A DNA stretch of 64,000 nt from Phycisphaeraceae bacterium (lineage in GTDB: Bacteria; Planctomycetota; Phycisphaerae; Phycisphaerales; Phycisphaeraceae). Location of the stretch: contig OY771506.1 in the NCBI GenBank assembly GCA_963674705.1, positions 608,001 through 672,000 on the forward strand. Reading direction: 5' to 3'. Position 1 is the stretch's first letter; every line of letters starts with the position of its first letter. Made by a program: the position numbers and the translations under genes. Below the pieces are notes generated by a model, which did no database searches, had not been told where the DNA came from, and was given only the letters and a program-made list of their open reading frames with translations. This document shows positions 14,407 through 27,407 of the stretch, piece by piece.

Positions 14407-14488
14407 TGAGGTGGGACGGAGTTGAACCGCCAGGGTCTTTCGACGGCTGGGTTACAGCCAGCGGGGCCTGCCAATGCCCAACCACCTC
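14407..14488 (-). tRNA. trnY: tRNA-Tyr(GTA)
   Basis: Cloverleaf; anticodon arm GCTGG-CTGTAAC-CCAGC; long variable arm; no CCA. Confidence 0.9.
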
Positions 14489-14616
14489 GGATGAGCCGTT
14501 AGCCGTTAGGCTTTGGCCATGAGCACGGAGTTGTTCCGCCTTTGGCGGATGGGGGCAGCAAGCTGCCCCGCTTAACGGCAAGCCTTTTTGCGCTAACAGA
14601 TGGTGGCTTCATAAAG

Positions 14617-14701
14617 CGGAAGGCGGTGGGCACGATCCACAAACTCAAACGAGTCCCGACCGGTTAGCAACCGGTGCCCGTCCCCGACGGGTTCACCTTC
14701 C
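14617..14701 (-). tRNA. trnS: tRNA-Ser(GCT), atypical T-loop
   Basis: ACCGG-TTGCTAA-CCGGT; long variable arm; T-loop reads ATCGTGC rather than TTCRANY. Confidence 0.8.
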
Positions 14702-14805
14702 TGGTGTATGTAGGCTTGAGGCGTGAGTCTTGAGGCTTGATTAAGCATGCAAAACGTAAGCATTGCGATACTCAAGCCTCATCCCTCAAGTCTCAAGCCT
14801 TCCAA

Positions 14806-14876
14806 AGGCCGGGGCGGGAATCGAACCCGCTTGGACGGGGTTGCAGCCCGTCGCCTTGCCATTCGGCCACCCGGTC
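14806..14876 (-). tRNA. trnC: tRNA-Cys(GCA)
   Basis: ACGGG-CTGCAAC-CCCGT; U73; A2-C71 mismatch. Confidence 0.88.
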
Positions 14877-14931
14877 TTGTGAAGAGTGGATGGATGTGAA
14901 TTGAAGCAATAAAAACCGTTAAAATCCACAT

Positions 14932-15822
14932 ATGGACTTTCTATTCTGCTGTTATCCAAATCGCATTCGTGAAGTTGATCCGGATTATCAGGCCGAGGCT
15001 GATTGCGTAAGACAACTCAGTTCATCTGTGAGTTTGTTGGATCATGACGCTCTGCTTGAGGGAAGTGTCTCCAAATCAATCCGAGGCGTTGAATCCCGTA
15101 CAGATCAGAAACAGCTGTGCTATCGGGGGTGGATGATCCCACCGCCGTTGTATAAACAGCTATACGAGGGTCTACTTGAAAAGAACCTAGTGCTAATCAA
15201 TTCACCCCAGCAGTATCAACATTGCCATTACCTGCCGGATTCATATGAATCTATCAAAGGCAAGACGCCTGAGACTGTGTGGATCCCGGGACGACCTCCG
15301 TTTGATCCAGCACAGATCATGGCGGCAATCAAACTGTTTGGTGGCAAACCGTTGGTCCTGAAAGATTATGTGAAGTCGCAGAAGCACTATTGGAAGGAAG
15401 CCTGCTACATACCTGACTCAAACAAGCAAGATGAAGTCATGTCCCGGGTTAACAGGTTCATCGAGCTACAGTGTGATGACATCGAGGGTGGATTGGTGTT
15501 TCGCGCGTATGTGCCGATCAAGATCATTGGGCGACATGCGGTTAGTGGTATGCCGTTAAGTCATGAATATCGTGTTGTGTGGTTTGAACAGAATCCGGTT
15601 GTGGTTTGGCCTTATTGGGATGCTGCTGATCCGAGGGAATGTGATCCGCCTTTGGATGCATTTCGCGAAGTCGCGAACCAGATCAACAGTCGGTTTTTCA
15701 CGATGGATATTGCTGAGCTTGACGACAGCAGTTGGATCATTGTTGAGCTAGGCGATGCGCAGGTCGCAGGATTACCGGAGAATGCTGATCCGGTGACTCT
15801 GTATAAACCGTTAATTGATTGA
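14932..15822 (+). CDS. ATP-grasp domain protein (R2K-clade-like)
   Basis: YRGWM, CHYLPDSY, VLKDYVKSQKH, GGLVFR, EYRV and FFTMDIA..W.IVELGDAQVAG. Confidence 0.8.
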   Translation: MDFLFCCYPNRIREVDPDYQAEADCVRQLSSSVSLLDHDALLEGSVSKSIRGVESRTDQKQLCYRGWMIPPPLYKQLYEGLLEKNLVLINSPQQYQHCHYLPDSYESIKGKTPETVWIPGRPPFDPAQIMAAIKLFGGKPLVLKDYVKSQKHYWKEACYIPDSNKQDEVMSRVNRFIELQCDDIEGGLVFRAYVPIKIIGRHAVSGMPLSHEYRVVWFEQNPVVVWPYWDAADPRECDPPLDAFREVANQINSRFFTMDIAELDDSSWIIVELGDAQVAGLPENADPVTLYKPLID

Positions 15823-15850
15823 CTTGGCATATCAGAATGCAATTCAAAAA

Positions 15851-15922
15851 TGCGGCCGACAGGGATCGAACCTGCTCCTCCGCCGTGGCGGGGCGGCGCT
15901 CGGCCAATTGAGCTTCGACCGC
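15851..15922 (-). tRNA. trnG: tRNA-Gly(GCC), atypical (A8, C33, A73)
   Basis: CCGCC-CCGCCAC-GGCGG; standard D and T arms. Confidence 0.85.
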
Positions 15923-15956
15923 GTGGTGGGTAGTTCGTTGTGATATCGATTAGAAG

Positions 15957-16029
15957 CACGCACGGTAGGGGTTGAACCCACATCTGGTGGATTTGGAATC
16001 CACTGCTCTGCCGATTGAGCTACGTGCGT
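15957..16029 (-). tRNA. trnW: tRNA-Trp(CCA)
   Basis: GTGGA-TTCCAAA-TCCAC; G73. Confidence 0.92.
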
Positions 16030-16179
16030 GTGGGGAGAGCTGTTAGCTGTTAGCTGTTAGCCGTCAGTAAGAAGTATTCCGCCTGCGGCGGATGGGGGTA
16101 GCAAGCTGCCCCGCTAAACGGGGAGAACGCGAAACGCGAAACGGCTTGAGCTAATGGCTAAGGGCTAACGGCTCATAAA

Positions 16180-16251
16180 CTGCACCGGCAGGAATCGAAC
16201 CCGCAACCGTCTGCTTAACAGGCAGCCGCACTACCTTTGTGCTACGGTGCA
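16180..16251 (-). tRNA. trnN: tRNA-Asn(GTT)
   Basis: CTGC-CTGTTAA-GCAG; U1-A72; G73. Confidence 0.9.
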
Positions 16252-16302
16252 ATGTGTGTGATTGACTAAAGCCTCACCGCTCAAGTCTCAAGACTTTTCA
16301 AA

Positions 16303-16375
16303 TCACCCCGGCTGGGGTCGAACCAGCACGCTGCCGTTTAGAAGACGGCCGCTCTTCCGTTTGAGCTACGGGGCG
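16303..16375 (-). tRNA. trnR: tRNA-Arg(TCT)
   Basis: GCCGT-CTTCTAA-ACGGC; GGAA D-loop (A20). Confidence 0.9.
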
Positions 16376-16432
16376 ATGCTCGACTTATTCGATCGTTATT
16401 GACAGCGTGATGCGATACCTGACAATGCGGGT

Positions 16433-17470
16433 ATGTATGAAAATCAAACCAACAGTGACGGTGATAAAGGACCGGGGGCTGAGGCTGTCGCTCGTGTGGT
16501 TGACGCGGCGAATCAGCATCCCGATGAAGGGCCAACGGAAGAACTGATCACTGCGATCAATGAATTGGTTGCACAGGACAAGCATCTTGATGCGAACACG
16601 TATCGAGCCTTGTCGGAGAGCATCAAGCAGATACGGTCGCCGATGAGTGCGGGATTCGTCGCTGTCTGGTTAGGTGCGACGGTTGAAAATGGTGCGGACC
16701 CGCATGTGCCGTTGCCGCATGTTCTTGAATACCTGTACAACCTGATCGCCACGATCCAAACGCCGAAGGACGATGAGCCGGATGATGCGGTCCCCGAACC
16801 GGGCGAACTTGTGCAGCAAGCATTGGATCACCTGGGGCAGGCGCTGGTCGCGATGTTGATACGTTGTCCCGATGCGATCAGGGAACTCATCCGGCGCGAG
16901 CAGGCTGTATCCGAGCTTGAGCGCGTGGAGCATCTGGCGAGTGGACCCAAGTGGATATTAGCGTTACTTAGACAACGCAGCGGTGAGTTGCTTGTATTGC
17001 ACGGCGTTGAAGGGGTCGGCGTTCGTGTGAAGTATGAGAATATCGAAAACTGTTTTCACCTGTTCACGCTCCTTCAGGGTTTACTCCAGCGTGTGATGCC
17101 CGGCGCGAAGACGCAAAGCACGACGATGTACAAGATCGCGCGGGGTGAACTGGTCGGGCAGGTGCATGACTCGGCGTGGTGGCATTACGGCCGGGCCGGG
17201 GTGCCGAAGGCGGACTTTGTCGGGATGGTCTTTGGCGAGCCGACGCTAGATTCGATCGATGAGGTTGACGGACAACAGGTGTTGCTGCTCTGGCCGCCGA
17301 TCATCGCGGATCGTTCGTGGAACTCTGGCTTTTTCCAGCCGATCATCGATGCCAGGAAGCCGAACGTTGAGTTGCTGGAGAAGCTGTCGCCTGACGAGGT
17401 TAAACGCTGGCGCGAACGGTTGGGTTTGCCTGCGGCAAAGGCGCGGCCGTGGTGGCGTTTCTGGTCTTGA
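16433..17470 (+). CDS. Hypothetical protein ending in a RPWWRFWS motif
   Basis: 345-aa ORF filling the space between two tRNAs on the opposite strand. Confidence 0.75.
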   Translation: MYENQTNSDGDKGPGAEAVARVVDAANQHPDEGPTEELITAINELVAQDKHLDANTYRALSESIKQIRSPMSAGFVAVWLGATVENGADPHVPLPHVLEYLYNLIATIQTPKDDEPDDAVPEPGELVQQALDHLGQALVAMLIRCPDAIRELIRREQAVSELERVEHLASGPKWILALLRQRSGELLVLHGVEGVGVRVKYENIENCFHLFTLLQGLLQRVMPGAKTQSTTMYKIARGELVGQVHDSAWWHYGRAGVPKADFVGMVFGEPTLDSIDEVDGQQVLLLWPPIIADRSWNSGFFQPIIDARKPNVELLEKLSPDEVKRWRERLGLPAAKARPWWRFWS

Positions 17471-17483
17471 CCGTGAGTATGAA

Positions 17484-17555
17484 AGCCGGCGGCCGGGATC
17501 GAACCGGCGCCTCCGTGGTACGAGCACGGTGTTCTGCCTGTTGAACCACACCGGC
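17484..17555 (-). tRNA. trnT: tRNA-Thr(CGT)
   Basis: CCGTG-CTCGTAC-CACGG; G1-C72, C2-G71. Confidence 0.9.
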
Positions 17556-17632
17556 GATAAAACCCTCGGCCCGAAGACCGAGGGCTGCAGAGAAAAAACG
17601 CGAAACATTCGCATGCAGACACCATTAAGAAG

Positions 17633-17705
17633 TGGCCCCGGTGGGACTCGAACCCACACCCAGCGGATTAAAAGTCCGCTGCTCTGCCGATCGAGCTACA
17701 GGGCC
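17633..17705 (-). tRNA. trnK: tRNA-Lys(TTT)
   Basis: GCGGA-CTTTTAA-TCCGC; A73. Confidence 0.92.
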
Positions 17706-17869
17706 TTGTCGTGTTGTTTTAAAATGGGAGAGCGAGCAGGCTGGCAGCCTGCGGCTAATGGGTGAGTGCGTTGGGATGAAGTTGTTGAAAACAAGATAGC
17801 CAGTTGATCTACGATGTTTCGCGGCGGGCTTTGTTACCCTACACCCCACACCCTAAACCCTATCCACAA

Positions 17870-17943
17870 TGCGCCGTGTCGGCCTCGAACCGACCACCTG
17901 CTGGTTGGAAGCCAGCCGCTCTGCCGAGATGAGCTAACGACGC
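17870..17943 (-). tRNA. trnG: tRNA-Gly(TCC), A73
   Basis: GCTGG-CTTCCAA-CCAGC; GCG acceptor start. Confidence 0.9.
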
Positions 17944-18024
17944 CAGGTATGTTTCATTTCTGCATGCTCTGTGTGGCGCAGTCGCAATACGGCCACGGCC
18001 GATCATCTATAATGGGCGGCACCG

Positions 18025-19896
18025 ATGGGACAGCTTGCCGAGAATACGGTGTTGCGATCACAACGTGTTTACAAAACCCGTTGGATCTCGGGTTTTGTCC
18101 TGATCTCTGGTGTCACGATGGCTGGCGCCTGTCTGTTCATCATTCTCGCGACATTGCTTGCGGGCAAATCCAGCCCGATCATGCAAGTGATTGTCACAGT
18201 CTGGCTGGGGATCACGGCAGCTTTCTTTCTCTGGTATCCACTTCACATGTTCAGCCGATCGCTGACGCGATATATCTTCACACCTGAAGCGTTAATTGAA
18301 CGTTCGCTGTTCCGCAAGCAGGTCATGCCCTGGCGTGACGTGACGGATTATTCCGTGGTGGCTGGTGACGCGGGGGAGCCGTTGTCACACATCATCTTTC
18401 ATCTGGTCGACGGCCAGACCAAACAACTGCCGTTGGACCTGATCCCCGAAGGCCGGGTGGAGACGTTACTTTCGGCATATGTGCCGTTGATCGCGGAGCA
18501 TGGGTTGGAGCGACCGAGGCAAGCCGGATCGTCAAAAAGCGAACTGCGTAAAAGCACACGGAAGGAAGCCATCTCCGATTGGGCTACTCTTTGTTTCAAC
18601 ATTTTGTTTGGTGGGATTTGTATCACAGTATCTGTCTTTCTCATGCTTGGTCGCATGGAGTATCAACTAATCATCAGCGATCCGGTGGAAGTGACCGCGA
18701 CGGTTATTGAACTGGATGTTGATGAAGAGGATGCATCGTTAACATTTGAATTCACTGACGATCAAGGCCATGTTGTCCGATCTAGCCGGTCGGTCGAGGT
18801 GAGCACAGCTAAAACATTGGCTGTAGGCAGCGAAGTAACCGTCAAGCACCTGCGTGGTTCACCTACAAAAGTCCGATTGAAGAAGGGCGATCTGGATCAC
18901 CAAGAGTGGCTGTACGTATTCGTCAGCTTCCCGCTGGGGTGGTTGTGTATTTGGGGGTGTTTCCGGCTGCTCAGGTCGATTTTTGGGCCTAAGACAAAAT
19001 CGGCGTCATGGTCGGTCCAGTCTAATTATGACGAGGCGATTATCTCGTACAGCCCGGCATATATGGAAACCAGTGTTGCTATGATCCCCGAGCAACATGT
19101 CGGTGCGGCGGTTTTTCTTCGTCTGAACAGCAAGGAAAACAGCAATCAATTCGTGGATCAGATGTCCACTTTTTCACCAAGCTCGCATGAATTGAACGGG
19201 AACAATATCCAGTGTGAAAACATTGCCGGGATTTTCCTGTGTATGGGGCCCGTGGCGATGTCTCGTTTTGTATCCCGCTTGGGCGAGCCGGCCAAGACCC
19301 GTGCTGAATATGTCGTGCTCGACATGGCGGACAGTGTGGAAGTAAGCCGGTGGGCGGTACGGAATGATCCGAGGCATCGCGACATGGATGAATTATTCAG
19401 CGATGAAGTCGTTCGGTTCTGTTGCCGAAATAACACGGTTGGGCCGGTGCAGCCGGGTGAACTGACATACGTGTTTGATCGATTCATCATGCAAATGATC
19501 AAAGCCCTGTGTGAAGATCAGACGCCCGCGGGGCTATACGACGTCAGTATCTGTCAAATCCTGAATCTCTCACCCAAAGACCTTGATGCCAGGATCATGC
19601 TGTCGCTGCAGATGAACCGGTTGCGGATTTTTGTGCAGCTGCGCGGCGTCAATCAAGCTTCGGTGGCTGAGTATCAATTTGGACAGTGGCGGCGCACCCC
19701 GGAAATGCCCGTGCCATTAAGCATGCGCAACTTCAAGTGGTTGAAGTATGTGTTAGCGCTGCCGTATGGTCCGTGGCTGATATTGCCGGTGTTACCGTAT
19801 CTCATCTACTGGGCGATGGAATTGCCATGCAAATGGTATCGGCACTTTCAATTGAATAAAGCGCGGGCCGCGTTGTTGCAATCTTCCTCGATCTGA
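18025..19896 (+). CDS. Multi-pass membrane protein (bacterial PH-like plus DUF3592-like segments)
   Basis: 623-aa ORF with several hydrophobic helices; VTATVIEL...FEFTDDQG...VGSEVTVKHL resembles DUF3592. Confidence 0.7.
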   Translation: MGQLAENTVLRSQRVYKTRWISGFVLISGVTMAGACLFIILATLLAGKSSPIMQVIVTVWLGITAAFFLWYPLHMFSRSLTRYIFTPEALIERSLFRKQVMPWRDVTDYSVVAGDAGEPLSHIIFHLVDGQTKQLPLDLIPEGRVETLLSAYVPLIAEHGLERPRQAGSSKSELRKSTRKEAISDWATLCFNILFGGICITVSVFLMLGRMEYQLIISDPVEVTATVIELDVDEEDASLTFEFTDDQGHVVRSSRSVEVSTAKTLAVGSEVTVKHLRGSPTKVRLKKGDLDHQEWLYVFVSFPLGWLCIWGCFRLLRSIFGPKTKSASWSVQSNYDEAIISYSPAYMETSVAMIPEQHVGAAVFLRLNSKENSNQFVDQMSTFSPSSHELNGNNIQCENIAGIFLCMGPVAMSRFVSRLGEPAKTRAEYVVLDMADSVEVSRWAVRNDPRHRDMDELFSDEVVRFCCRNNTVGPVQPGELTYVFDRFIMQMIKALCEDQTPAGLYDVSICQILNLSPKDLDARIMLSLQMNRLRIFVQLRGVNQASVAEYQFGQWRRTPEMPVPLSMRNFKWLKYVLALPYGPWLILPVLPYLIYWAMELPCKWYRHFQLNKARAALLQSSSI

Positions 19897-19915
19897 GCCC
19901 GACTCACAAAATCAA

Positions 19916-19990
19916 TCAGCCCGGCTGGATTCGAACCAGCGATCTCTCCCGCCCGAAGGGAGCGTGATGACCAAGCTTCACCACAGGCTG
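19916..19990 (-). tRNA. trnP: tRNA-Pro(CGG)
   Basis: CTCCC-TTCGGGC-GGGAG; C1-G72, A73. Confidence 0.9.
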
Positions 19991-20120
19991 TTAAGCACAA
20001 TGCATAGTTGATTGAGTGTTCAATCAAATATAGTTCACACGAGATTGCTGGCCCTCACCCCGGCCCTCTCCCAAGGGGAGAGGGAGTAAAACACTAAGCC
20101 GCAAGCGGCTTTTGGGTGAA

Positions 20121-20192
20121 TCAGGGGAGAGGGAGTCGAACCCGCTTCCTCGGGGTCACGGCCCGAAGCTTTACCGCATAAGCTATCCCCTG
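20121..20192 (-). tRNA. trnH: tRNA-His(GTG), atypical (no G-1:C73; C1-G72, A73, C33)
   Basis: TCGGG-CCGTGAC-CCCGA; acceptor CAGGGGA/TCCCCTG-A. Confidence 0.8.
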
Positions 20193-20233
20193 AATGACGG
20201 GCCCCCGATCCCGCCTCATTGAATCATGTGTGA

Positions 20234-20482
20234 TTATTGTCTGAAGTAATGGCTGCGGTTTGAGCCGTCGAGTTTGCCGGTCTTCATGCAGCACTTCTTA
20301 AAAGCGTTTGCCGCTGCCGCAAGGACATGGATCGTTGCGGCCGAGCTTTTCGATCAGTTCTTTGTTGCCATGAACGCATTGGTCGCCCCGCTTGACTTGT
20401 GACTCGGACGGGTAGCCGTAGCGTCGCTTGCTCATGGGCTGGAAAGGATTGGTCGTCGTTAAAAGCGATGGTCCTTGTGCAT
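20234..20482 (-). CDS. SEC-C motif zinc-binding protein, split across frames (candidate +1 programmed frameshifts)
   Basis: AAAGGAGGT SD plus ATG 20482; [15 protein letters not shown] stops at TAA 20298 and the motif-completing KKCC lies in the +1 frame. Confidence 0.75.
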
Positions 20483-20548
20483 GGTGCACCTCCTTTGATA
20501 ATAGATTGTTACCACTCACACTCCCCCTCTCTTGCGTCAGAAGTTATA

Positions 20549-21529
20549 ATGCAGGAGATGAAATTACGGCCTAAAGCATTAGAAAACTTGGCGGTAATGA
20601 TTTGCGGAAATAAAGATGATCCGTATGGAATACCATTTTCATATCGCTCTAGTTCATACTTAACAGGTTTCTTTTCTGAGTGTGACTTAACATTTGTACA
20701 TGATGGCTCAACACGTAAAAGGTGGGTACTAGATGTTCTAAATTCACTAAACCAAAATGTCGCAAGTATGCCCGATCTCCCCTCAGATGACCTGGTTCGG
20801 GTAATCACCGAATTAATGGATCCAGACCATTTTGACGCGGAAGATACCGATCGAGGACAGGCCTTGAACAAGTTAAACCAAACTCTCAGCCGAGATTCCT
20901 TGATCGCATATATTGAAAATAATGGGCAGTGTTATTTACGACATACAGGCGCTGGTACAACATCTGCAATGTTGCCTCAACGACCCCGCCCACTATCTCC
21001 AGAAGAAAAACAACAGCGAGACACACTGTCCAAATTTCTCGATAACGCGAGCGAAGACGAGTTTACAGAAACAGTACTAGTCCCATTATTTCAGCGCCTT
21101 GGATATCACAGAGTCATAGCATCGGGGCACAAAGAAAAAGTATTAGAATTCGGGAAAGACTTATGGATGAAGTTTCAATTACCAACTGCCCATTGGATAT
21201 ACTTTGCCATACAGGTAAAAAGAGTGAAAATTGATGCCAAAGGTAAAAGCAGTGGTAATGTTACAGAAGTACTCAATCAGGTGAGAATGGCTCTGGACCA
21301 CGAGATATTTGATCCCGATGTAAATCGAACAGTACTACCAGATCATATCTACGTTATTTCGGCTGCAGAGATAACCCGAGCAGCACAAGCTTGGATCATT
21401 CGACATCTAGATAGAGAACAACGACGTCAAATCATCTTCATGGATCGCACGGAATTATTGAATTTCGCAGCTCGAATAGTTACAGAACTACCAACGCCGA
21501 ATTCTATCGATGACGAAATACCTTTCTAA
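20549..21529 (+). CDS. Putative PD-(D/E)xK restriction-endonuclease-like (Mrr-like) protein with AbiJ-like N-terminus
   Basis: EDEFTE..LVPLFQRLGY, EFGKDL and AIQVK catalytic-type motif; visibly more AT-rich than its flanks. Confidence 0.7.
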   Translation: MQEMKLRPKALENLAVMICGNKDDPYGIPFSYRSSSYLTGFFSECDLTFVHDGSTRKRWVLDVLNSLNQNVASMPDLPSDDLVRVITELMDPDHFDAEDTDRGQALNKLNQTLSRDSLIAYIENNGQCYLRHTGAGTTSAMLPQRPRPLSPEEKQQRDTLSKFLDNASEDEFTETVLVPLFQRLGYHRVIASGHKEKVLEFGKDLWMKFQLPTAHWIYFAIQVKRVKIDAKGKSSGNVTEVLNQVRMALDHEIFDPDVNRTVLPDHIYVISAAEITRAAQAWIIRHLDREQRRQIIFMDRTELLNFAARIVTELPTPNSIDDEIPF

Positions 21530-21532
21530 AAA

Positions 21533-21605
21533 TCAGAGCGGCAGGACTCGAACCTGCGGCCGCCTGGTCCCAAACCAGGCGCTCTGCCAACTGAGCTACG
21601 CTCTG
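21533..21605 (-). tRNA. trnP: tRNA-Pro(TGG)
   Basis: CCTGG-TTTGGGA-CCAGG; C1-G72, A73. Confidence 0.92.
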
Positions 21606-21664
21606 TGATAAAGCCCGGCCGGGCGCGCTTGTGAGAAGCGGCCCGATGGCCGGGGATATAGGGG

Positions 21665-22279
21665 TTAATCGTGCAACTCGGTGTTCCAGTACGCGGTGTC
21701 CACGAAGTGTTTCCACGTGTCGTGGCGGAACCGATGCGAACGGAACATGAGTGCCGTCGGGTCCGGACGCTTCGGCTGACGGATCAACTTCAGGCCGGCC
21801 TCTTCGGGCGTGCGGTTGCCTTTGATCGCGTTAACTTCGACGCAGCAGCAAACCAGGTTTTCCCAATTCGTCTTGCCGCCACGCGAGGTGGGGATGACGT
21901 GGTCGAGGTTCAGCTTGCTGGCAGGGAGTTTGCGGCCGGTGTACTGGCAGGTGTAGTTATCCCGCAGGTACACGTTCTTTCGGCTCAAGCGCACGGCCTG
22001 GCGTTGCATACGCCGATCGAACCGCAGCATGCGGACGACGCTTGGGACGATGATGGCCGAGGTTACCGTTCGCACGAAGCTGTGGGCCTCGGGCTCGAAC
22101 TCATGTGCGAATTCACTGAGCTCGTGCCAGGATGCGAAGTCGTAAGCGCGATAGTTTTCGTCAACGGCTTCGACTCGGCCGACAAACAGATCGGCCAGCG
22201 CTTCAGCAGCGGTGATGATCCGCAGCGCGGCGTAGTTACGGTTCAGAACGAGCACATCATGCGACAGAGCCGACGTCAT
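21665..22279 (-). CDS. HNH endonuclease
   Basis: VLVLN, LSRKNVYLRDNYTCQY, LNLDHVIPTSRGG..WENLV..C..VNAIKG; AAAGGAGGT SD 5 nt before ATG 22279. Confidence 0.9.
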   Translation of the reverse strand: MTSALSHDVLVLNRNYAALRIITAAEALADLFVGRVEAVDENYRAYDFASWHELSEFAHEFEPEAHSFVRTVTSAIIVPSVVRMLRFDRRMQRQAVRLSRKNVYLRDNYTCQYTGRKLPASKLNLDHVIPTSRGGKTNWENLVCCCVEVNAIKGNRTPEEAGLKLIRQPKRPDPTALMFRSHRFRHDTWKHFVDTAYWNTELHD

Positions 22280-22381
22280 GGCCGACCTCCTTTCAGGATT
22301 GAAGTTGATTGACTGGTTTTGTCCCCTCTCCCCAGGCAACGAATTCGATCTGCGTTGCAACTTCTTACAGAAGAAAACTAT

Positions 22382-22548
22382 TAGCCACCGATGAACACGG
22401 ATGAACACAGATCAGAATAAATCCTGTTTCGTGTTTCGAACACATTGACTCAAGATGCCTGTTCTGACTACTTGAACTGCGATGAATCTGATGCACTTAA
22501 GCTTCTCTTGCTTTGCATCTGTGTTCATCCGTGTTTATCTGTGGCTAA
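22382..22548. repeat. Inverted-repeat element family B (GCCAC-GATGAACACGGATGAACACAGAT ... ATCTGTGTTCATC-GTGGC)
   Basis: Paired arms also at 25641-25733, 27282-27375 and 29209-29320; single arm at 6756-6787; related variant at 24143-24260. Confidence 0.85.
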
Positions 22549-22613
22549 AATTGGCTGGCTGAAGACTCCGAACGAATATGTTGCGAGGGAAGAGGGAGCA
22601 GGAGTAAAGCAAG

Positions 22614-22685
22614 TGGAGCTGCGGGGAATCGAACCCCGATCTCCCGGGTGCAAGCCGGGTGCTCTCCCGATTGAGCTACGGCCCC
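22614..22685 (-). tRNA. trnA: tRNA-Ala(TGC)
   Basis: CCCGG-CTTGCAC-CCGGG; G3-U70 present. Confidence 0.92.
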
Positions 22686-22696
22686 ATGAAAAGGAA

Positions 22697-22761
22697 TGTC
22701 GCGGAGAGGATTCGAACCTCCATCAACTGGGAAGTGCCTCTGCCGATTGGGCTACGACGAC
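22697..22761 (-). ncRNA. tRNA-like RNA or pseudo-tRNA lacking a normal anticodon arm (Leu-type D-arm)
   Basis: 65 nt: acceptor GTCGTCG/CCGCGAC-A, D-arm GCCCAATCGGCAGAGGC, perfect TTCGAAT T-loop, but only ACT-TCCC-AGT in place of the anticodon arm. Confidence 0.7.
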
Positions 22762-23993
22762 AAAATTAAAAAAAGTAAGTGGCCCGGGTGGGAGTCGAAC
22801 CCACAACGCACCGGATCTGAGCCGGCGTCCTCTGCCGGTTGGGATACCGAGCCGGAGATAGAGCAGGAGTAAAACAGAGCAGGAGAACAGGAGATAGGAG
22901 AGCAGGAGAAAAAGATAAGTGCTCTCGGCTGGGGTCGAACCAGCACGCCGTTGCCGGCAGCGGGGTTTAAATCCGCCGCGTCTGCCTGTTCCGCCACGAG
23001 AGCGTTTGTTTGTTTAACACGAATGCCGCCGGCAGGATTCGAACCTGCACGTTGCCGGGTTTGAGCCGGCTTCCTCTGCCGATTGGGATACGGCGGCCAG
23101 GTTGGTGCGTCGGGCGGGATGATGAGTTTGCTGCGATACGGGCGGACGGTTTGTCGCGGGGTGTGAAGTTGCCGAAAGCGTTTCGCTAGCAGCGTACAGA
23201 ATCGACAGTATTCAAGATCCACATCTTTTAGCTTAACTTGAATACAGCGTGAACCATCCAAGTATCTCTTAGCTTGCTTTTCGGCAATCTCTGTATACGA
23301 GCGTGCGTAATACGGGCCACCATAGATCCGCCACAACTCACTAATGCTGATAGGTGCTCTGCCCAGCACGGCGTCTATAAAGTCGAAACCCCAAGGGGGA
23401 TACCCCAAGATTCGCCGGGCGGTGATGGGCGCCAGGTCAATCATGAACCAACGATGACGCCGGTGATGCAATTGGAAACCGGCGCAGACATCAAAAAACA
23501 CACAAGGTGGGTCAAACTTTCTGCATGACCTAAACGACGGCGACATCATCAGTAGACCGGTGTCCGGATGCACATAGAACCGGTCGCGCCAATGGCGGCC
23601 CCAGATTGGTTGCCAACCGAAGGGGTAGCCGACCGAACAGGGTTGGCCGTCAATGATCCGGACATGTCGGACAACAAGCCAGAGCACGTGGTCGCGCACG
23701 TGGTTTTGAACGGTACTGTCAACCCGGACGTGTTGGCTGATCTCCGACCAGACATCGTTCCACGGCTTGCCGACCGAGCTCTGCAGGAAACGGATCAGTG
23801 GGGCCAGGTTTTCGCTTTGCCACTTCATATTTTTCCATGTCTGCCAGGCTCGTTTCATACCTTCTATATGGGGTAGGCCGGTGTCGTCATCGGCGTCGCG
23901 TGGTAATCGGTAGCGCTTGGCGCCACGGGGGAACTTATTACGGCAGCCTCCCCGCGGTCGCTCGACGATCAGCTTGGCCATGTCGCTTCGCAC
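22752..23993 (-). CDS. Arg-rich hypothetical protein (MRSDMAKLIVERPRGG...); frame runs on through three tRNA-Leu genes
   Basis: AAAGGAGGT SD 5 nt before GTG 23993; protein-like for about 250 aa (ENLAPLIRFLQSSVGKPWNDVWSEI, FYVHPDTGLL); first stop at 22752. Confidence 0.7.
   Translation of the reverse strand: MRSDMAKLIVERPRGGCRNKFPRGAKRYRLPRDADDDTGLPHIEGMKRAWQTWKNMKWQSENLAPLIRFLQSSVGKPWNDVWSEISQHVRVDSTVQNHVRDHVLWLVVRHVRIIDGQPCSVGYPFGWQPIWGRHWRDRFYVHPDTGLLMMSPSFRSCRKFDPPCVFFDVCAGFQLHHRRHRWFMIDLAPITARRILGYPPWGFDFIDAVLGRAPISISELWRIYGGPYYARSYTEIAEKQAKRYLDGSRCIQVKLKDVDLEYCRFCTLLAKRFRQLHTPRQTVRPYRSKLIIPPDAPTWPPYPNRQRKPAQTRQRAGSNPAGGIRVKQTNALVAEQADAADLNPAAGNGVLVRPQPRALIFFSCSPISCSPALFYSCSISGSVSQPAEDAGSDPVRCGFDSHPGHLLFLILSS
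22780..22853 (-). tRNA. trnL: tRNA-Leu(CAG), short variable loop, A37
   Basis: GCCGG-CTCAGAT-CCGGT; variable region only GCGTT. Confidence 0.85.
22920..23003 (-). tRNA. trnL: tRNA-Leu(TAA)
   Basis: GCGGA-TTTAAAC-CCCGC; long variable arm GCCG-GCAA-CGGC. Confidence 0.9.
23024..23097 (-). tRNA. trnL: tRNA-Leu(CAA), short variable loop
   Basis: GCCGG-CTCAAAC-CCGGC; variable region only AACGT. Confidence 0.87.
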
Positions 23994-24048
23994 GGCACAC
24001 CTCCTTTCTGCTGTTGCGGTTGTTGCGGTTGCTACGAAGACAGGACAA

Positions 24049-24121
24049 TCACCCCGGCAAGAATCGAACTTGCAGCCTTCGGCTTCGGAGGCCGATGCTC
24101 TTCCGGTTGAGCTACGAGGTG
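24049..24121 (-). tRNA. trnR: tRNA-Arg(CCG), A37
   Basis: TCGGC-CTCCGAA-GCCGA; AACCGGAA D-loop. Confidence 0.9.
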
Positions 24122-24292
24122 TTAGTGAAAACAAAAGCGGTTTGCCACGAAAAGGCACAGAAGACACAAAAGGGCTGGCTTAAGAAGCACAGAACATTGC
24201 GTAACAAACCAATTGAATACTCATGTATTTCTATTTTGTGGTTTTTGTGCCTTTTGTGGCTACTTCTTAGTCTTACATGAATGTGAGATTAA

Positions 24293-24365
24293 ACAGGCCG
24301 GCGGGATTTGAACCCGCAACCTGCCGGTTCAAAGCCGGCCGCTCTTCCGGTTGAGCTACAGCCCG
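24293..24365 (-). tRNA. tRNA with Gln anticodon (TTG) on an Arg-like body
   Basis: GCCGG-CTTTGAA-CCGGC; D-arm identical to the Arg(CCG) copy; C1-G72, U73. Confidence 0.75.
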
Positions 24366-24366
24366 A

Positions 24367-24438
24367 TCGACCCGGCGTGACTCGAACCCACGCACAGGCC
24401 CTTATAAGGGACCCGCTCTGCCACTGAGCTACGGGTCG
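24367..24438 (-). tRNA. trnI: tRNA-Ile(TAT)
   Basis: GGTCC-CTTATAA-GGGCC; A73; G52-A62 mismatch in T-stem. Confidence 0.82.
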
Positions 24439-24594
24439 GGGGATTCGATCTGAAGTACCAATTCAATTGGATTACCCGCTCGATCATGTTGCATACGAAT
24501 ACACAATGAATTCGGCCCTCACCCCGGCCCTCTCCCGAGGGGAGAGGGGGAAAGTACAAGCCTCAAGACTCACGCCTCAAACCTTTTCAAAAAG

Positions 24595-24667
24595 CCACCC
24601 CGGCAGGATTCGAACCTGCACCTTCCGGATTCGTAGTCCGGCGCCCATCCGCTTGAGCTTCGGGGTG
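24595..24667 (-). tRNA. trnR: tRNA-Arg(ACG), A8
   Basis: CCGGA-CTACGAA-TCCGG; A20. Confidence 0.9.
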
Positions 24668-24682
24668 AAGTACCCGACGGCG

Positions 24683-25396
24683 TTATGCAAACCGACGGGC
24701 GATGTATGTATTGATCGTGTCAACAACACGACGCTGCGATGCGAGCACATGGTCTGCGTGAAGTCGAAAATCACGAGGAATGTGGCCATGCTCATCGTAG
24801 GCCACCTCTCGCCAAAGGATCACCAGGCCGACGCCCGCGAATGTGTATTGATGGCGGTTTTCCGAAAAATGACAACGACGGACTAACTCTGCGCCGTACG
24901 ATACACGTGCCAGATCCCGGCCGAAGTTACCCGTCCAGGTCACGATCTGTTCGAGGTCGGCTTCAACAAGAGGCCAGCCGTTCGATGCAACAAGATCACG
25001 TAACGTCATCAGCTTCAGGACCCTCGCCATATCGCGATCACGTTTGCGTGGGTATACCTTATCGCCCAGCCGCCAGATCAGTCGATTGCAGAACCGGCAA
25101 CTGCAATGAATATCAACCGGTGTTTGCCGCAATGGGTGATCTGCGGAGGTATGTCCGAACGATACTAACATGCTTGTGTAAGCAACCATGTCAGCATCAT
25201 GAAGAAGTAGTTCTTCCGGGATAACGCCGCGGTTATTCACAAGCCAATCCGCAGCAGCTTCGCACTCAGGTATATGTTTGTGGTCGTGGTCGAACCGCAG
25301 GCCGGTTTTGAAACGGGCATCACGGAGCCAATCGATGAATGCGTAGACAATCTGTTGTACACGTATCGCCTGATCAACTGTTTGTTTTGTGAGTAC
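24683..25396 (-). CDS. Hypothetical protein with CxCxxC motif; start position occupied by GTA
   Basis: Open frame fills the Thr(TGT)-Arg(ACG) spacer; SD-like AAAGGCAGGT lies 5 nt before in-frame GTA 25396; alternative TTG 25417 has no room for an SD. Confidence 0.6.
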   Translation of the reverse strand, partial: VLTKQTVDQAIRVQQIVYAFIDWLRDARFKTGLRFDHDHKHIPECEAAADWLVNNRGVIPEELLLHDADMVAYTSMLVSFGHTSADHPLRQTPVDIHCSCRFCNRLIWRLGDKVYPRKRDRDMARVLKLMTLRDLVASNGWPLVEADLEQIVTWTGNFGRDLARVSYGAELVRRCHFSENRHQYTFAGVGLVILWREVAYDEHGHIPRDFRLHADHVLASQRRVVDTINTYIARRFA

Positions 25397-25419
25397 GATG
25401 CACCTGCCTTTGAGCAAAG

Positions 25420-25492
25420 AGCCACGAGTCGGGATTGAACCGACGACCTGCGGTTTACAAGACCGCTGCTCTGCCAGTTGAGCTACCGTGGC
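25420..25492 (-). tRNA. trnT: tRNA-Thr(TGT)
   Basis: GCGGT-CTTGTAA-ACCGC. Confidence 0.93.
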
Positions 25493-25538
25493 GGGGAACT
25501 TTCGGGGGGAAACTTCCGGGGGAAACTTCCGGGGGAAA
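25493..25538. repeat. Short tandem repeat (GGGGAAACTTCC-like, about 3.5 copies)
   Basis: Direct reading; the complementary CCCGGAAGTTTT motif recurs at about 26122, 26378 and 57163. Confidence 0.65.
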
Positions 25539-25539
25539 G

Positions 25540-25613
25540 CGACGCCGACGGGGATCGAACCCGTGACCTCTTCCGTGACAGGGAAGTGCTCTTGCCGATT
25601 GAGCTACGGCGCC
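25540..25613 (-). tRNA. trnD: tRNA-Asp(GTC)
   Basis: CTTCC-CTGTCAC-GGAAG; G73. Confidence 0.92.
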
Positions 25614-25754
25614 GTGCTTCAATCTGAATAGAAAGTATTTTTAGCCACGGATGAACACGGATGAACACAGATAAGATTTGAAAATATCTCATTCAGATCG
25701 TAATCCGTGTTTATCTGTGTTCATCGGTGGCTAATACAGGTTAATACAGCACAA

Positions 25755-25836
25755 AGCTACCGACGGGAGCCCCCGGTTTTGAACCCGTGACCGCCCGCTT
25801 ACCACGCGGGTGCTCTTCCGGCCGAGCTCCGGCAGC
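25755..25836 (-). tRNA. trnT: tRNA-Thr(GGT) with a 9-nt T-loop insertion (possible pseudo-tRNA)
   Basis: CCCGC-GTGGTAA-GCGGG; T-arm ACGGG-TTCAAAACCGGGGGCT-CCCGT; G8, G32. Confidence 0.65.
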
Positions 25837-25849
25837 ATTGTTAAAACAA

Positions 25850-25922
25850 TTGACCCGAGAGGAATTGAACCTCTTGCCCCCCGCTTATCAGGCGGGTGCT
25901 CTTGCCGGTGAGCTACGGGTCA
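25850..25922 (-). tRNA. trnI: tRNA-Ile(GAT)
   Basis: CCCGC-CTGATAA-GCGGG. Confidence 0.9.
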
Positions 25923-26000
25923 AGTCTGTAATAAAGCGCATCGCCCCGCCGCCCGATTGCGACGGGGCTTGCGATTTTTTTACATCCATCCACTCTTAAC

Positions 26001-26032
26001 TTGTCAATGAACGCGTGGCTGTAAACACAGCC
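26001..26032 (-). promoter_or_regulatory. boxB-like hairpin plus boxA-like antitermination signal
   Basis: GGCTGT-GTTT-ACAGCC followed 4 nt later by GTTCATTGACAA (compare rrn boxA GCTCTTTAACAA). Confidence 0.5.
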
Positions 26033-26039
26033 GACTAAG

Positions 26040-26111
26040 CCGCTGGTCCCGGATTCGAACCGGGGGCTCCCGGGCTTCAACCGAGCGCTTTACCCGCTAA
26101 GCGAACCAGCG
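26040..26111 (-). tRNA. trnF: tRNA-Phe(GAA), atypical (G37, C38, G73, C1-G72)
   Basis: CTCGG-TTGAAGC-CCGGG; acceptor CGCTGGT/ACCAGCG-G. Confidence 0.85.
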
Positions 26112-26185
26112 CCCCCCCGATCCCCGGAAGTTTTTCCCTCGTGTTATTCACACGGAAGGAATGCTTCCGGGGATCGGGTTAAAAG

Positions 26186-26257
26186 TCGCCGCGGTCGGGA
26201 TTGAACCGACGCACTTCCCCATGTAACGGGGATGCTCTACCGCTGAGCTACGCGGCA
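26186..26257 (-). tRNA. trnV: tRNA-Val(TAC), G32
   Basis: TCCCC-GTTACAT-GGGGA. Confidence 0.88.
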
Positions 26258-26439
26258 TCGTTGGCGCACCGATCGCGTGGACGGTTTTGGCCGTCTTTGT
26301 CGCACCGATCGGTGCGCCACTTTCGGGTTGTCTCGGCCGAGAAGGGATATACCCCCGTCTCTCAGCCTCTCCCCAGCCCCCGGAAGTTTTGTCACTCGCG
26401 CTACTCACGCGTAAGTAATCTTCCAGGGACGGTTGTTAA

Positions 26440-26511
26440 TGGCGGCGACGGGACTCGAACCCGTGTCTCCGGGACATGAACCCGGCAAGGAACCAACTCC
26501 TCCACACCGCT
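26440..26511 (-). tRNA. trnfM: Initiator-type tRNA-fMet(CAT), G37
   Basis: CCGGG-TTCATGT-CCCGG (three G-C pairs), A1-C72 mismatch, A11-U24. Confidence 0.85.
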
Positions 26512-26525
26512 ATTTACTTTTTAAG

Positions 26526-26599
26526 TCGCGATGGCTGGACTTGAACCAGCAACCTTTCCCGTATGAAGGGCGTGCTCTACACTTTTGAGCTACATCGCG
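26526..26599 (-). tRNA. trnM: tRNA-Met(CAT), elongator type, degenerate
   Basis: CGCCC-TTCATAC-GGGAA with two mismatches at the top of the stem; D-loop lacks GG. Confidence 0.7.
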
Positions 26600-26647
26600 A
26601 ATTTGTTGTTTTCGATCGTCCTTTCTTTTTAACACTCAAACTTTGAA

Positions 26648-26719
26648 TGGCCGCGGCTGGGATCGAACCAGCGCCCCCCTGCTTGTCGTGCAGGTGATCT
26701 ACCGCTGATCTACGCGGCC
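26648..26719 (-). tRNA. trnV: tRNA-Val(GAC), A32/C33
   Basis: CCTGC-ACGACAA-GCAGG. Confidence 0.87.
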
Positions 26720-26732
26720 ATGGGATAACCAA

Positions 26733-26803
26733 TAGCCTTGGCGGGAATTGAACCCGCGGCTCCGCCTTGAAAGGGCGGCGTGCTTCCACTGCACCACAAG
26801 GCC
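26733..26803 (-). tRNA. trnE: tRNA-Glu(TTC), first gene of the array
   Basis: CCGCC-CTTTCAA-GGCGG; U11-A24. Confidence 0.9.
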
Positions 26804-26872
26804 AATGCATAACGACAGTTACGTCGTTTCGAACGTCGTGTGGCGTCGGGTTTTGAGTCTGGGGAAGCGGGC

Positions 26873-27100
26873 TTACGCGGCGGATCGATCGCCCGGCATA
26901 AATCGCCGTGATCGACCTTTGCCGGCGGCCTGTGTCCCTGGTAGTAGCACGCATAACGCATGCCTGTAAATACCGAGGTAACTGAAGGCCGCTTGGCATA
27001 TGTCCGCAAGAATCGCGGACACGTCCCCAATGCCGCCAGACAGCATCGACGCACAGGACGTGCGTTCGTATGTATTCAGTTTTTGCTGTCTGAGGGTCAT
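26873..27100 (-). CDS. Putative leader ORF (75 aa) in the structured 5' leader of the tRNA array
   Basis: AGGTGA SD-like sequence before ATG 27100, just downstream of the promoter; overlaps several hairpins. Confidence 0.35.
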   Translation of the reverse strand: MTLRQQKLNTYERTSCASMLSGGIGDVSAILADICQAAFSYLGIYRHALCVLLPGTQAAGKGRSRRFMPGDRSAA

Positions 27101-27142
27101 CGGTTCACCTACTTCGTTAGAAGTTACTATTAACTGGCGAGA

Positions 27143-27171
27143 ACTATATCGGCGCATCGGCCGATGTGCAA
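27143..27171 (-). promoter_or_regulatory. Sigma70-type promoter of the tRNA array with a dyad in the spacer
   Basis: TTGCAC-N17-TATAGT; near-perfect palindrome GCACATCGGCCGATGCGC at 27152-27169. Confidence 0.65.
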
Positions 27172-27407
27172 CAGTAAATACGCGAATTCATGCAAAATTA
27201 TTGCAGCGCGTCGTCATAAGTTTAATAAATTGAGATTCTGGAGGAAAAAAAGTTGACGATTGGATCTATGAAAAAAGCATTTTAGCCACAGATGAACACA
27301 GATGAACACAGATAAGAATCAAATACATGGATTCATTCTGTTTGAATCCGTGTTTATCTGTGTTCATCGGTGGCAAATAGATTGGCTTTGATTAGCAGGA
27401 TGCATAC

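Follow-up and report, generated by a model that had tools for sequence, protein, structure and literature searches.

Is a tRNA-Phe gene with an unusual anticodon loop, encoded in a long tRNA array, a dedicated promoter of +1 frameshifting in a neighboring gene? The question is raised by a locus of a Phycisphaeraceae genome, analysed here as a stretch of 64,000 nucleotides (the window), for which the initial annotation had proposed that a tRNA-Phe with G37-C38 and G73 could promote +1 slips at UUU-Y in a gene coding for a SEC-C protein.

An intact tRNA-Phe gene in a supernumerary array

14407..26804, minus strand: long tRNA array, 30 tRNA genes in 12.4 kb, on a single strand
26040..26111, minus strand: tRNA-Phe(GAA), member of the array, identified by ARAGORN call, Rfam RF00005 and base pairing
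26074..26080, minus strand: anticodon loop UUGAAGC, without the MiaA motif, with purine36-G37
21665..22408, minus strand: HNH endonuclease gene in the array, used as a marker for related arrays free of base-37 bias

L-arrays, or tRNA array units, are defined by at least 20 tRNA genes at a density of at least 2 per kb (Tran 2015, in excerpt). With 30 genes at 2.4 per kb, supernumerary to a dispersed housekeeping set (48 further tRNA calls in the rest of the single-contig genome, including a canonical tRNA-Phe), the array of the window belongs to this class. A further trait of L-arrays is silence in normal conditions with induction upon translational stress, a behavior predicted for this array. 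The closest named relatives of its HNH gene are Phycisphaeraceae and Planctomycetota records.

The tRNA-Phe gene is 72 nt long, from C1 at 26111 to G73 at 26040, with a 4-nt variable loop, U20 and no encoded CCA. ARAGORN identifies it as tRNA-Phe(GAA), and its Rfam RF00005 score of 56.8 bits lies in the middle of the range of the 29 array matches. The acceptor stem is paired at 7/7 positions, starting with C1-G72, and the anticodon stem of 5 bp (one of them U-G) closes a 7-nt loop in which the GAA anticodon occupies 26078-26076, G37 position 26075 and C38 position 26074. Every stem is intact, with covariation among relatives. The loop, the C1-G72 pair and G73, as initially described, are all confirmed from the minus-strand letters. 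Moreover, contigs from two other studies differ by 4 substitutions within 700 bp and leave the tRNA-Phe positions unchanged; as the letters are the same in diverged contigs, G37, C38 and G73 are not sequencing errors. The G34-A35-A36 anticodon and U20 of canonical bacterial tRNA-Phe are present in the array copy, and the discriminator A73 is absent (G73). The housekeeping tRNA-Phe of the same genome (G000:C1:4320313) has a different loop, UUGAAAA, with A37-A38, G1-C72 and A73; the objection that the host copy might share the unusual loop therefore falls. The enlarged-loop type of +1 frameshift suppressor tRNA has an 8-nt anticodon loop, and the array copy, with 7 nt closed by G31-C39, is not of that type. 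In other words, 26040-26111 is an intact accessory tRNA-Phe gene of the known array kind.

Modification of base 37

MiaA requires A36-A37-A38 (PMC5699536, in excerpt). The array tRNA-Phe presents A36-G37-C38 and, the motif being necessary, MiaA is excluded, in agreement with the initial annotation. The additional claim that the loop fits neither MiaA nor TrmD was too strong in its second part: the strict G36-G37 of the E. coli rule is lacking, but the purine36-G37 of the Aquifex rule is present, and the Aquifex enzyme methylates a substrate with the same A36-G37 (PMC5372735). A36 is bound comparably by E. coli TrmD, and m1G37 is on record for bacterial tRNA-Phe. According to a structural review, with pyrimidine variants shown, the G36 pocket is specific for guanosine (PMC5372744, in excerpt), and TrmD methylation of the array tRNA-Phe is accordingly uncertain. 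The host genome encodes MiaA, MiaB and TrmD. In archaeal and eukaryotic tRNA-Phe, G37 after A36, as m1G37 or wyosine, is a known alternative to ms2i6A37; Trm5 was not found in the host genome. Mycoplasma tRNA-Phe carries m1G37, which is not taken as evidence here. The available part of the Mollicutes paper contains no statement on base 37 of tRNA-Phe.

Loss of ms2/i6 at base 37 raises +1 slips 3-9 fold (PMC5699536, in excerpt), and simple m1G37 has been suggested as the cause of CUU-U outshifting UUU-U (PMC5009743, in excerpt). The earlier link between hypomodification and frameshifting is consistent with these excerpts, as a less bulky base is expected to favor +1 slips at UUU-Y. Since G37, either bare or as m1G, is less bulky than ms2i6A, it is plausible that the array tRNA-Phe is mildly slip-prone at UUU-Y. 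UUU-Ynn is shift-prone in bacteria with ordinary tRNA-Phe, and no special tRNA is needed (PMC5009743, in excerpt). In E. coli, the A37 version of a suppressor tRNA outperforms the A36-G37 version about 2.5-fold in decoding.

Spread of G37 among accessory tRNA-Phe genes

The tRNA-Phe(GAA) of phage T5 (AY543070) has the loop CUGAAGA, with A36-G37 as in the window copy, and is recognised by E. coli PheRS (PMC9976931, in excerpt); unlike the window copy, it has G1-C72, A73, A38 and an encoded CCA, and lies in a phage cluster. The trn L-array of Anabaena PCC 7120 (Santamaria-Gomez 2021, PMC8421152, in excerpt), likewise supernumerary, on one strand and with an HNH gene, encodes a tRNA-Phe with the loop UUGAAGA, which shares G37 and C1-G72 with the window copy but carries A38 and A73 in place of C38 and G73. 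The operonic Anabaena tRNA-Phe is aminoacylated in vivo and migrates aberrantly on acid gel, and mistranslation of UUC was not seen. Induction and charging, demonstrated for that array, are predicted for the array of the window. A SEC-C gene is absent from the 15 kb inspected at the Anabaena array. Base 37 is unmentioned in the available passages of the Anabaena study.

A search with the HNH gene gave 32 loci and 13 arrays, with tRNA-Phe visible in 12. G37 is found in 8/12 (one of them nearly identical to the window) and A37-A38 in 4/12, one of which has a second copy with G37. Two extra 'Phe' calls in locus L128, likely shifted Ser(CGA) loops, were left out of this count. The orthologues carry C1-G72 in 11/12 cases and G73 in 8/12, including 2 with A37-A38. 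The occurrence of both acceptor features on A37-A38 orthologues indicates that they are array-lineage traits, separate from G37, and the suggestion that they belong to a 'shifty' design has to be abandoned.

In IMG/VR, patterns neutral for base 37 returned 98 loci with a 4-nt variable loop and 120 with a 5-nt one among the matches listed, in which G37 is carried by 79/96 and 58/109 distinct genes, respectively. Overall, viral tRNA-Phe(GAA) has G37 in 137/205 distinct genes among the matches listed, and in 81/125 after clustering at 85%. Again among the matches listed, 103 of the 137 viral G37 copies keep G1-C72 and A73, and 88/137 encode CCA; in the viral G37 loci, the MiaA motif is present on tRNA-Trp (40/41), tRNA-Cys (27/31) and tRNA-Tyr (24/33). 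An origin of the viral G37 copies from archaeal or eukaryotic viruses was considered and rejected, as neighboring Trp, Tyr, Cys or Ser tRNAs are mostly A37 across all 83 such loci listed.

Among 401 genomes of the phylum, 34 encode a G37 tRNA-Phe, all confirmed by ARAGORN and nearly all in tRNA clusters. The pattern matched 57 genomes, and matches with unpaired stems were dropped; it recovers 31/35 known G37 genes and replaced an earlier one that recovered 27/35. Candidates in G323, G354 and G157 are not tRNAs according to ARAGORN. The housekeeping tRNA-Phe genes inspected have A37-A38 in 7/7 cases. Both forms of tRNA-Phe occur together in L134, G410 (L496) and L372, which are arrays or phages, and such carriers suggest that the two forms are not redundant. 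G37 is therefore no peculiarity of this locus. Most of the sampled array and phage tRNA-Phe genes carry it, and at the locus level the tRNA-Phe of the window is ordinary for its class. A literature search, covering few subscription papers, turned up no paper that presents G37 as characteristic of tRNA-Phe in arrays or phages, and the term 'G37' is absent from the available passages of PMC4758250 and PMC12482277.

The departure from the host at base 37 extends to other members of the array. A36-A37-A38 is missing from 5/6 array NNA tRNAs versus 0/10 housekeeping ones, and A37 is found on 5/7 array NNG tRNAs versus 0/12 housekeeping ones, which are all G37. In the array, Arg, Gln, His and Leu NNG tRNAs have A37 and Pro has G37; T5 and viral loci behave likewise, the T5 set having A37 on His, Leu(UAG) and Gln and G37 on Pro. 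The His, Gln and Arg(ACG) tRNAs of E. coli normally have A37. Across 28 arrays compared, Pro retains G37, and Ser and Trp retain A37-A38, which weakens the idea that the array evades all base-37 enzymes. At base 37, the differences between accessory sets and the host thus follow a pattern. The change from A to G is largely specific to Phe, at times involving Leu(UAA), and no explanation offered covers it fully. By automatic pairing, C1-G72 occurs on about 8/27 non-Pro array tRNAs versus 0/43 housekeeping ones.

The split SEC-C gene

20234..20482, minus strand: split SEC-C mini-gene, Pfam SEC-C, 81 aa with three +1 steps

The SEC-C gene shares the strand of the tRNA-Phe gene and lies 5.6 kb downstream of it, separated from it by 12 tRNA genes and the HNH gene; it is preceded by a Shine-Dalgarno-like AGGAGG at 20494-20489. 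Its +1 sites at UUU-Y (20464, 20445 and 20303) are all needed for the 81-aa product. The split SEC-C gene pointed out by the initial annotation is real and conserved.

The family was examined in 118 members, 98 of which have a findable start. When every in-frame UUU-Y is read as a +1 step, the Cys motif is restored in 64/98 (strict pattern), and 63 of these 64 fail the motif without shifting. In 76 distinct read-throughs with 228 shift sites, the next codon is a stop in 81 cases, CAA in 43 and CGA in 35, and the sites come after C in 159/228. These sites resemble the UUU-Ynn sites and prfB-type shifty stops (Atkins 2016, PMC5009743, in excerpt), being UUU-Y often before a stop or CGA, but differ from those described there in requiring two to four shifts per 80-codon gene; a dedicated tRNA for UUU-Ynn sites does not appear in the available passages of that review.

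The SEC-C gene is small and widespread (window, L033-L066, L154-L233), with two to four +1 UUU-Y steps needed, and we judge it more interesting than the tRNA-Phe itself. Literature searches for a split SEC-C gene found no paper. In one array-borne clade (L059, L060, L062, L063 and L065), the gene is additionally interrupted midway, close to an AAAA run and not at UUU-Y.

Does G37 go with SEC-C?

Co-occurrence of the two genes across genomes was measured with SEC-C genomes defined by E below 1e-13. G37 tRNA-Phe is found in 15/32 SEC-C genomes versus 19/369 others, an odds ratio of 16 in which related genomes are not independent. Within the two richest families, the association is 7/12 versus 4/12 (p 0.41) and 3/5 versus 4/18 (p 0.14). 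Among HNH-marked arrays, G37 occurs in 4/4 with SEC-C versus 4/8 without (p 0.21). All nine SEC-C-bearing arrays with a visible tRNA-Phe (the window, 4 from genome loci and 4 from HNH-marked arrays) have G37, although they are related and not independent; SEC-C was found in 0/4 A37-A38 orthologue loci, one of which ends 130 bp past the HNH gene. Taken together, the 9/9 and the 0/4 keep a facultative link alive. The pairing initially proposed thus stands as a regularity among SEC-C arrays, and does not extend to a significant association in the two families tested.

Most SEC-C genes lie outside arrays. SEC-C loci in genomes are in arrays in 7/34 cases and have 0-1 tRNA in 27/34; in metagenomes (80 loci kept from 274 found), the 22 loci that span 10 kb or more have at most 3 tRNAs each. 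Conversely, 0/30 loci chosen for G37 have SEC-C within up to 10 kb. A G37 tRNA-Phe was not detected in 17/32 SEC-C genomes, one of them closed, a number that is an upper bound given fragmented genomes and the 31/35 sensitivity of the pattern. In two SEC-C carriers, the closed G157 and the 20-contig G260, a looser pattern gave A37-A38 tRNA-Phe only, and the closed G090 has a G37 tRNA-Phe and no SEC-C family match. G37 without SEC-C occurs in 19 genomes and in phage T5. Full-length SEC-C relatives number 0 in 50,697 phage records and 2 in IMG/VR, though G37 is the majority form there. With each gene widespread in the absence of the other, a specific tie between G37 and SEC-C, as initially supposed, is not borne out, and co-occurrence is not obligate.

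If a tRNA-Phe were strongly shifty, its carriers would be expected to use in-frame UUU-Y sparingly. This was assessed on 40 kb per viral record; of 20 G37 records and 17 A37 records, 18 and 15, respectively, exceeded an ORF cover of 0.5 and were kept. UUU-Y is avoided in both groups, with control-corrected log odds of -0.66 (G37) and -0.62 (A37; p 0.96); the uncorrected values are -0.48 and -1.03 (p 0.10). No extra avoidance was therefore seen in G37 phages (18 versus 15 records), in a test that is indirect because host tRNAs decode phage genes too. In the host, mechanically called long ORFs contain 3,222 UUU-Y among 43,353 in-frame Phe codons.

A probable backup decoder and its rivals

The reading that we prefer, with a probability of about 0.58, is that the accessory tRNA-Phe is a backup decoder of UUU and UUC that bypasses hypermodification by MiaA and MiaB. 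The A36-G37 loop, shared by most sampled array and phage tRNA-Phe, would sidestep these enzymes, and G37 would likely be methylated by TrmD or left bare. PheRS is expected to charge the tRNA, as happens with its G37 relatives of T5 and Anabaena, and its induction would accompany that of the array under translation stress, by extension from Anabaena, the one case in which induction is known. Compared with the housekeeping copy, the tRNA may be somewhat more slip-prone at UUU-Y; SEC-C frameshifting is predicted to be mainly a matter of ordinary slippage in the P site, where UUU-Y is followed by a codon that is decoded slowly, and SEC-C would be tied to the array probably through co-transcription. 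Some observations speak against a backup decoder: the tRNA has G73 where the conserved identity base for Phe is A73 (PMC9976931, in excerpt), the charged Anabaena relative migrates aberrantly (PMC8421152, in excerpt), SEC-C and G37 are associated genome-wide, and the A36-G37 suppressor is the poorer decoder by about 2.5-fold. In addition, since the other NNA tRNAs of viral G37 loci mostly keep the MiaA motif, bypass of MiaA leaves the Phe-only change unexplained.

It is improbable, in our estimate, that the G37 tRNA-Phe is instead a selected +1 shifter at UUU-Y, with the split SEC-C gene as its partner, made only upon array expression. The regularity among arrays (9/9 against 0/4), the odds ratio of 16, the 3-9 fold rise in slips upon ms2/i6 loss (PMC5699536, in excerpt) and the role suggested for m1G37 at CUU-U (PMC5009743, in excerpt) fit such a partnership; the non-significant tests within families (p 0.41 and 0.14) and HNH arrays (p 0.21), the opposite cases of G157 and G090, and the near absence of SEC-C relatives from phage records (0 in 50,697) and IMG/VR (2), despite the majority of G37, argue against it. 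Furthermore, the 3,222 host UUU-Y codons would be exposed, and G37 phages show no extra avoidance. We are similarly doubtful of a broader version, in which an inducible A36-G37 tRNA-Phe of arrays and phages loosens the frame at UUU-Y and the multi-shift SEC-C gene is a switch or sensor. Its full product would then appear, improbable as the scheme is, once the G37 tRNA, or loss of ms2i6A37, dominates decoding.

An unlikely alternative is that G37-C38 is an escape change, by which the loop would differ from the housekeeping one and evade an anticodon nuclease, or a toxin, that targets the latter. Such escape has been proposed generally for phage tRNAs (PMC10264068, in excerpt), base 37 differs in both directions (A to G in Phe, G to A in 5/7 array NNG tRNAs) and T5 shows the same swap. 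In stressed Anabaena, however, cleavage affects some operonic tRNAs but none of the housekeeping ones tested (PMC8421152, in excerpt), the Sf14 study, as far as its available part goes, rejected escape, and 'Phe' is not matched in the available main text of the eLife paper (PMC10264068). We know of no nuclease specific for tRNA-Phe. There is also a small chance that G73 and C1-G72 make the tRNA a poor or mischarged substrate, a decoy or a product of drift, with G37 inherited in the array lineage and devoid of a decoding role. A73 counts among the conserved identity bases for Phe (PMC9976931, in excerpt), the Anabaena relative has aberrant acid-gel mobility and its authors considered a sponge (PMC8421152, in excerpt), and orthologues vary both at base 37 (G37 or A37-A38) and at base 73 (G or A). 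Yet the stems are intact and covary across relatives, and orthologues have either G37 or A37-A38, never A37-C38 as in array Tyr, Cys and Leu tRNAs, which suggests selection. In Thermus, PheRS makes no contact with A73, which is a minor determinant there; 103/137 viral G37 copies among the matches listed have G1-C72 and A73; and UUC mistranslation was not seen in Anabaena (PMC8421152, in excerpt).

If the switch or sensor scheme were true, SEC-C and the G37 tRNA would amount to a recoding circuit that is controlled by a tRNA in nature. How base 37 is modified, and whether it affects frame keeping at UUU, are testable questions in T5-infected E. coli or in Anabaena; if G37 alters frame keeping, accessory tRNA sets could retune recoding in stress or infection.

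Other features of the array

26810..27260, minus strand: 5' leader of the array, no Rfam family, conserved in related arrays

The part of the leader at 26810-27130 folds strongly (z -4.76) and the leader is conserved at 72-89% in 6 related arrays, so that it is a possible regulatory RNA. Palindromic repeats lie between array genes, at 25640-25735 and 27290-27370, with many short matches in other contigs. Four genes inside the array are on the plus strand (14932-15822, 16433-17470, 18025-19896 and 20399-21529), one coding for an R2K-type ATP-grasp protein and three without Pfam match.

Several tRNA genes of the array are unusual in other respects. The one at 26439-26512 (minus strand) has a CAU anticodon, an unusual D arm and a G37-U38 loop, and similar G37 CAU genes recur among related arrays. 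At 22697-22761 (minus strand), a weak Rfam tRNA match of 32.2 bits without ARAGORN call is possibly a degenerate 31st gene. The array also encodes an Ile(UAU) tRNA. Finally, Leu(CAG) at 22779-22853 and Leu(CAA) at 23024-23097 (both minus strand) have short variable loops, and the variable loop of the housekeeping Leu(UAA) is likewise short.
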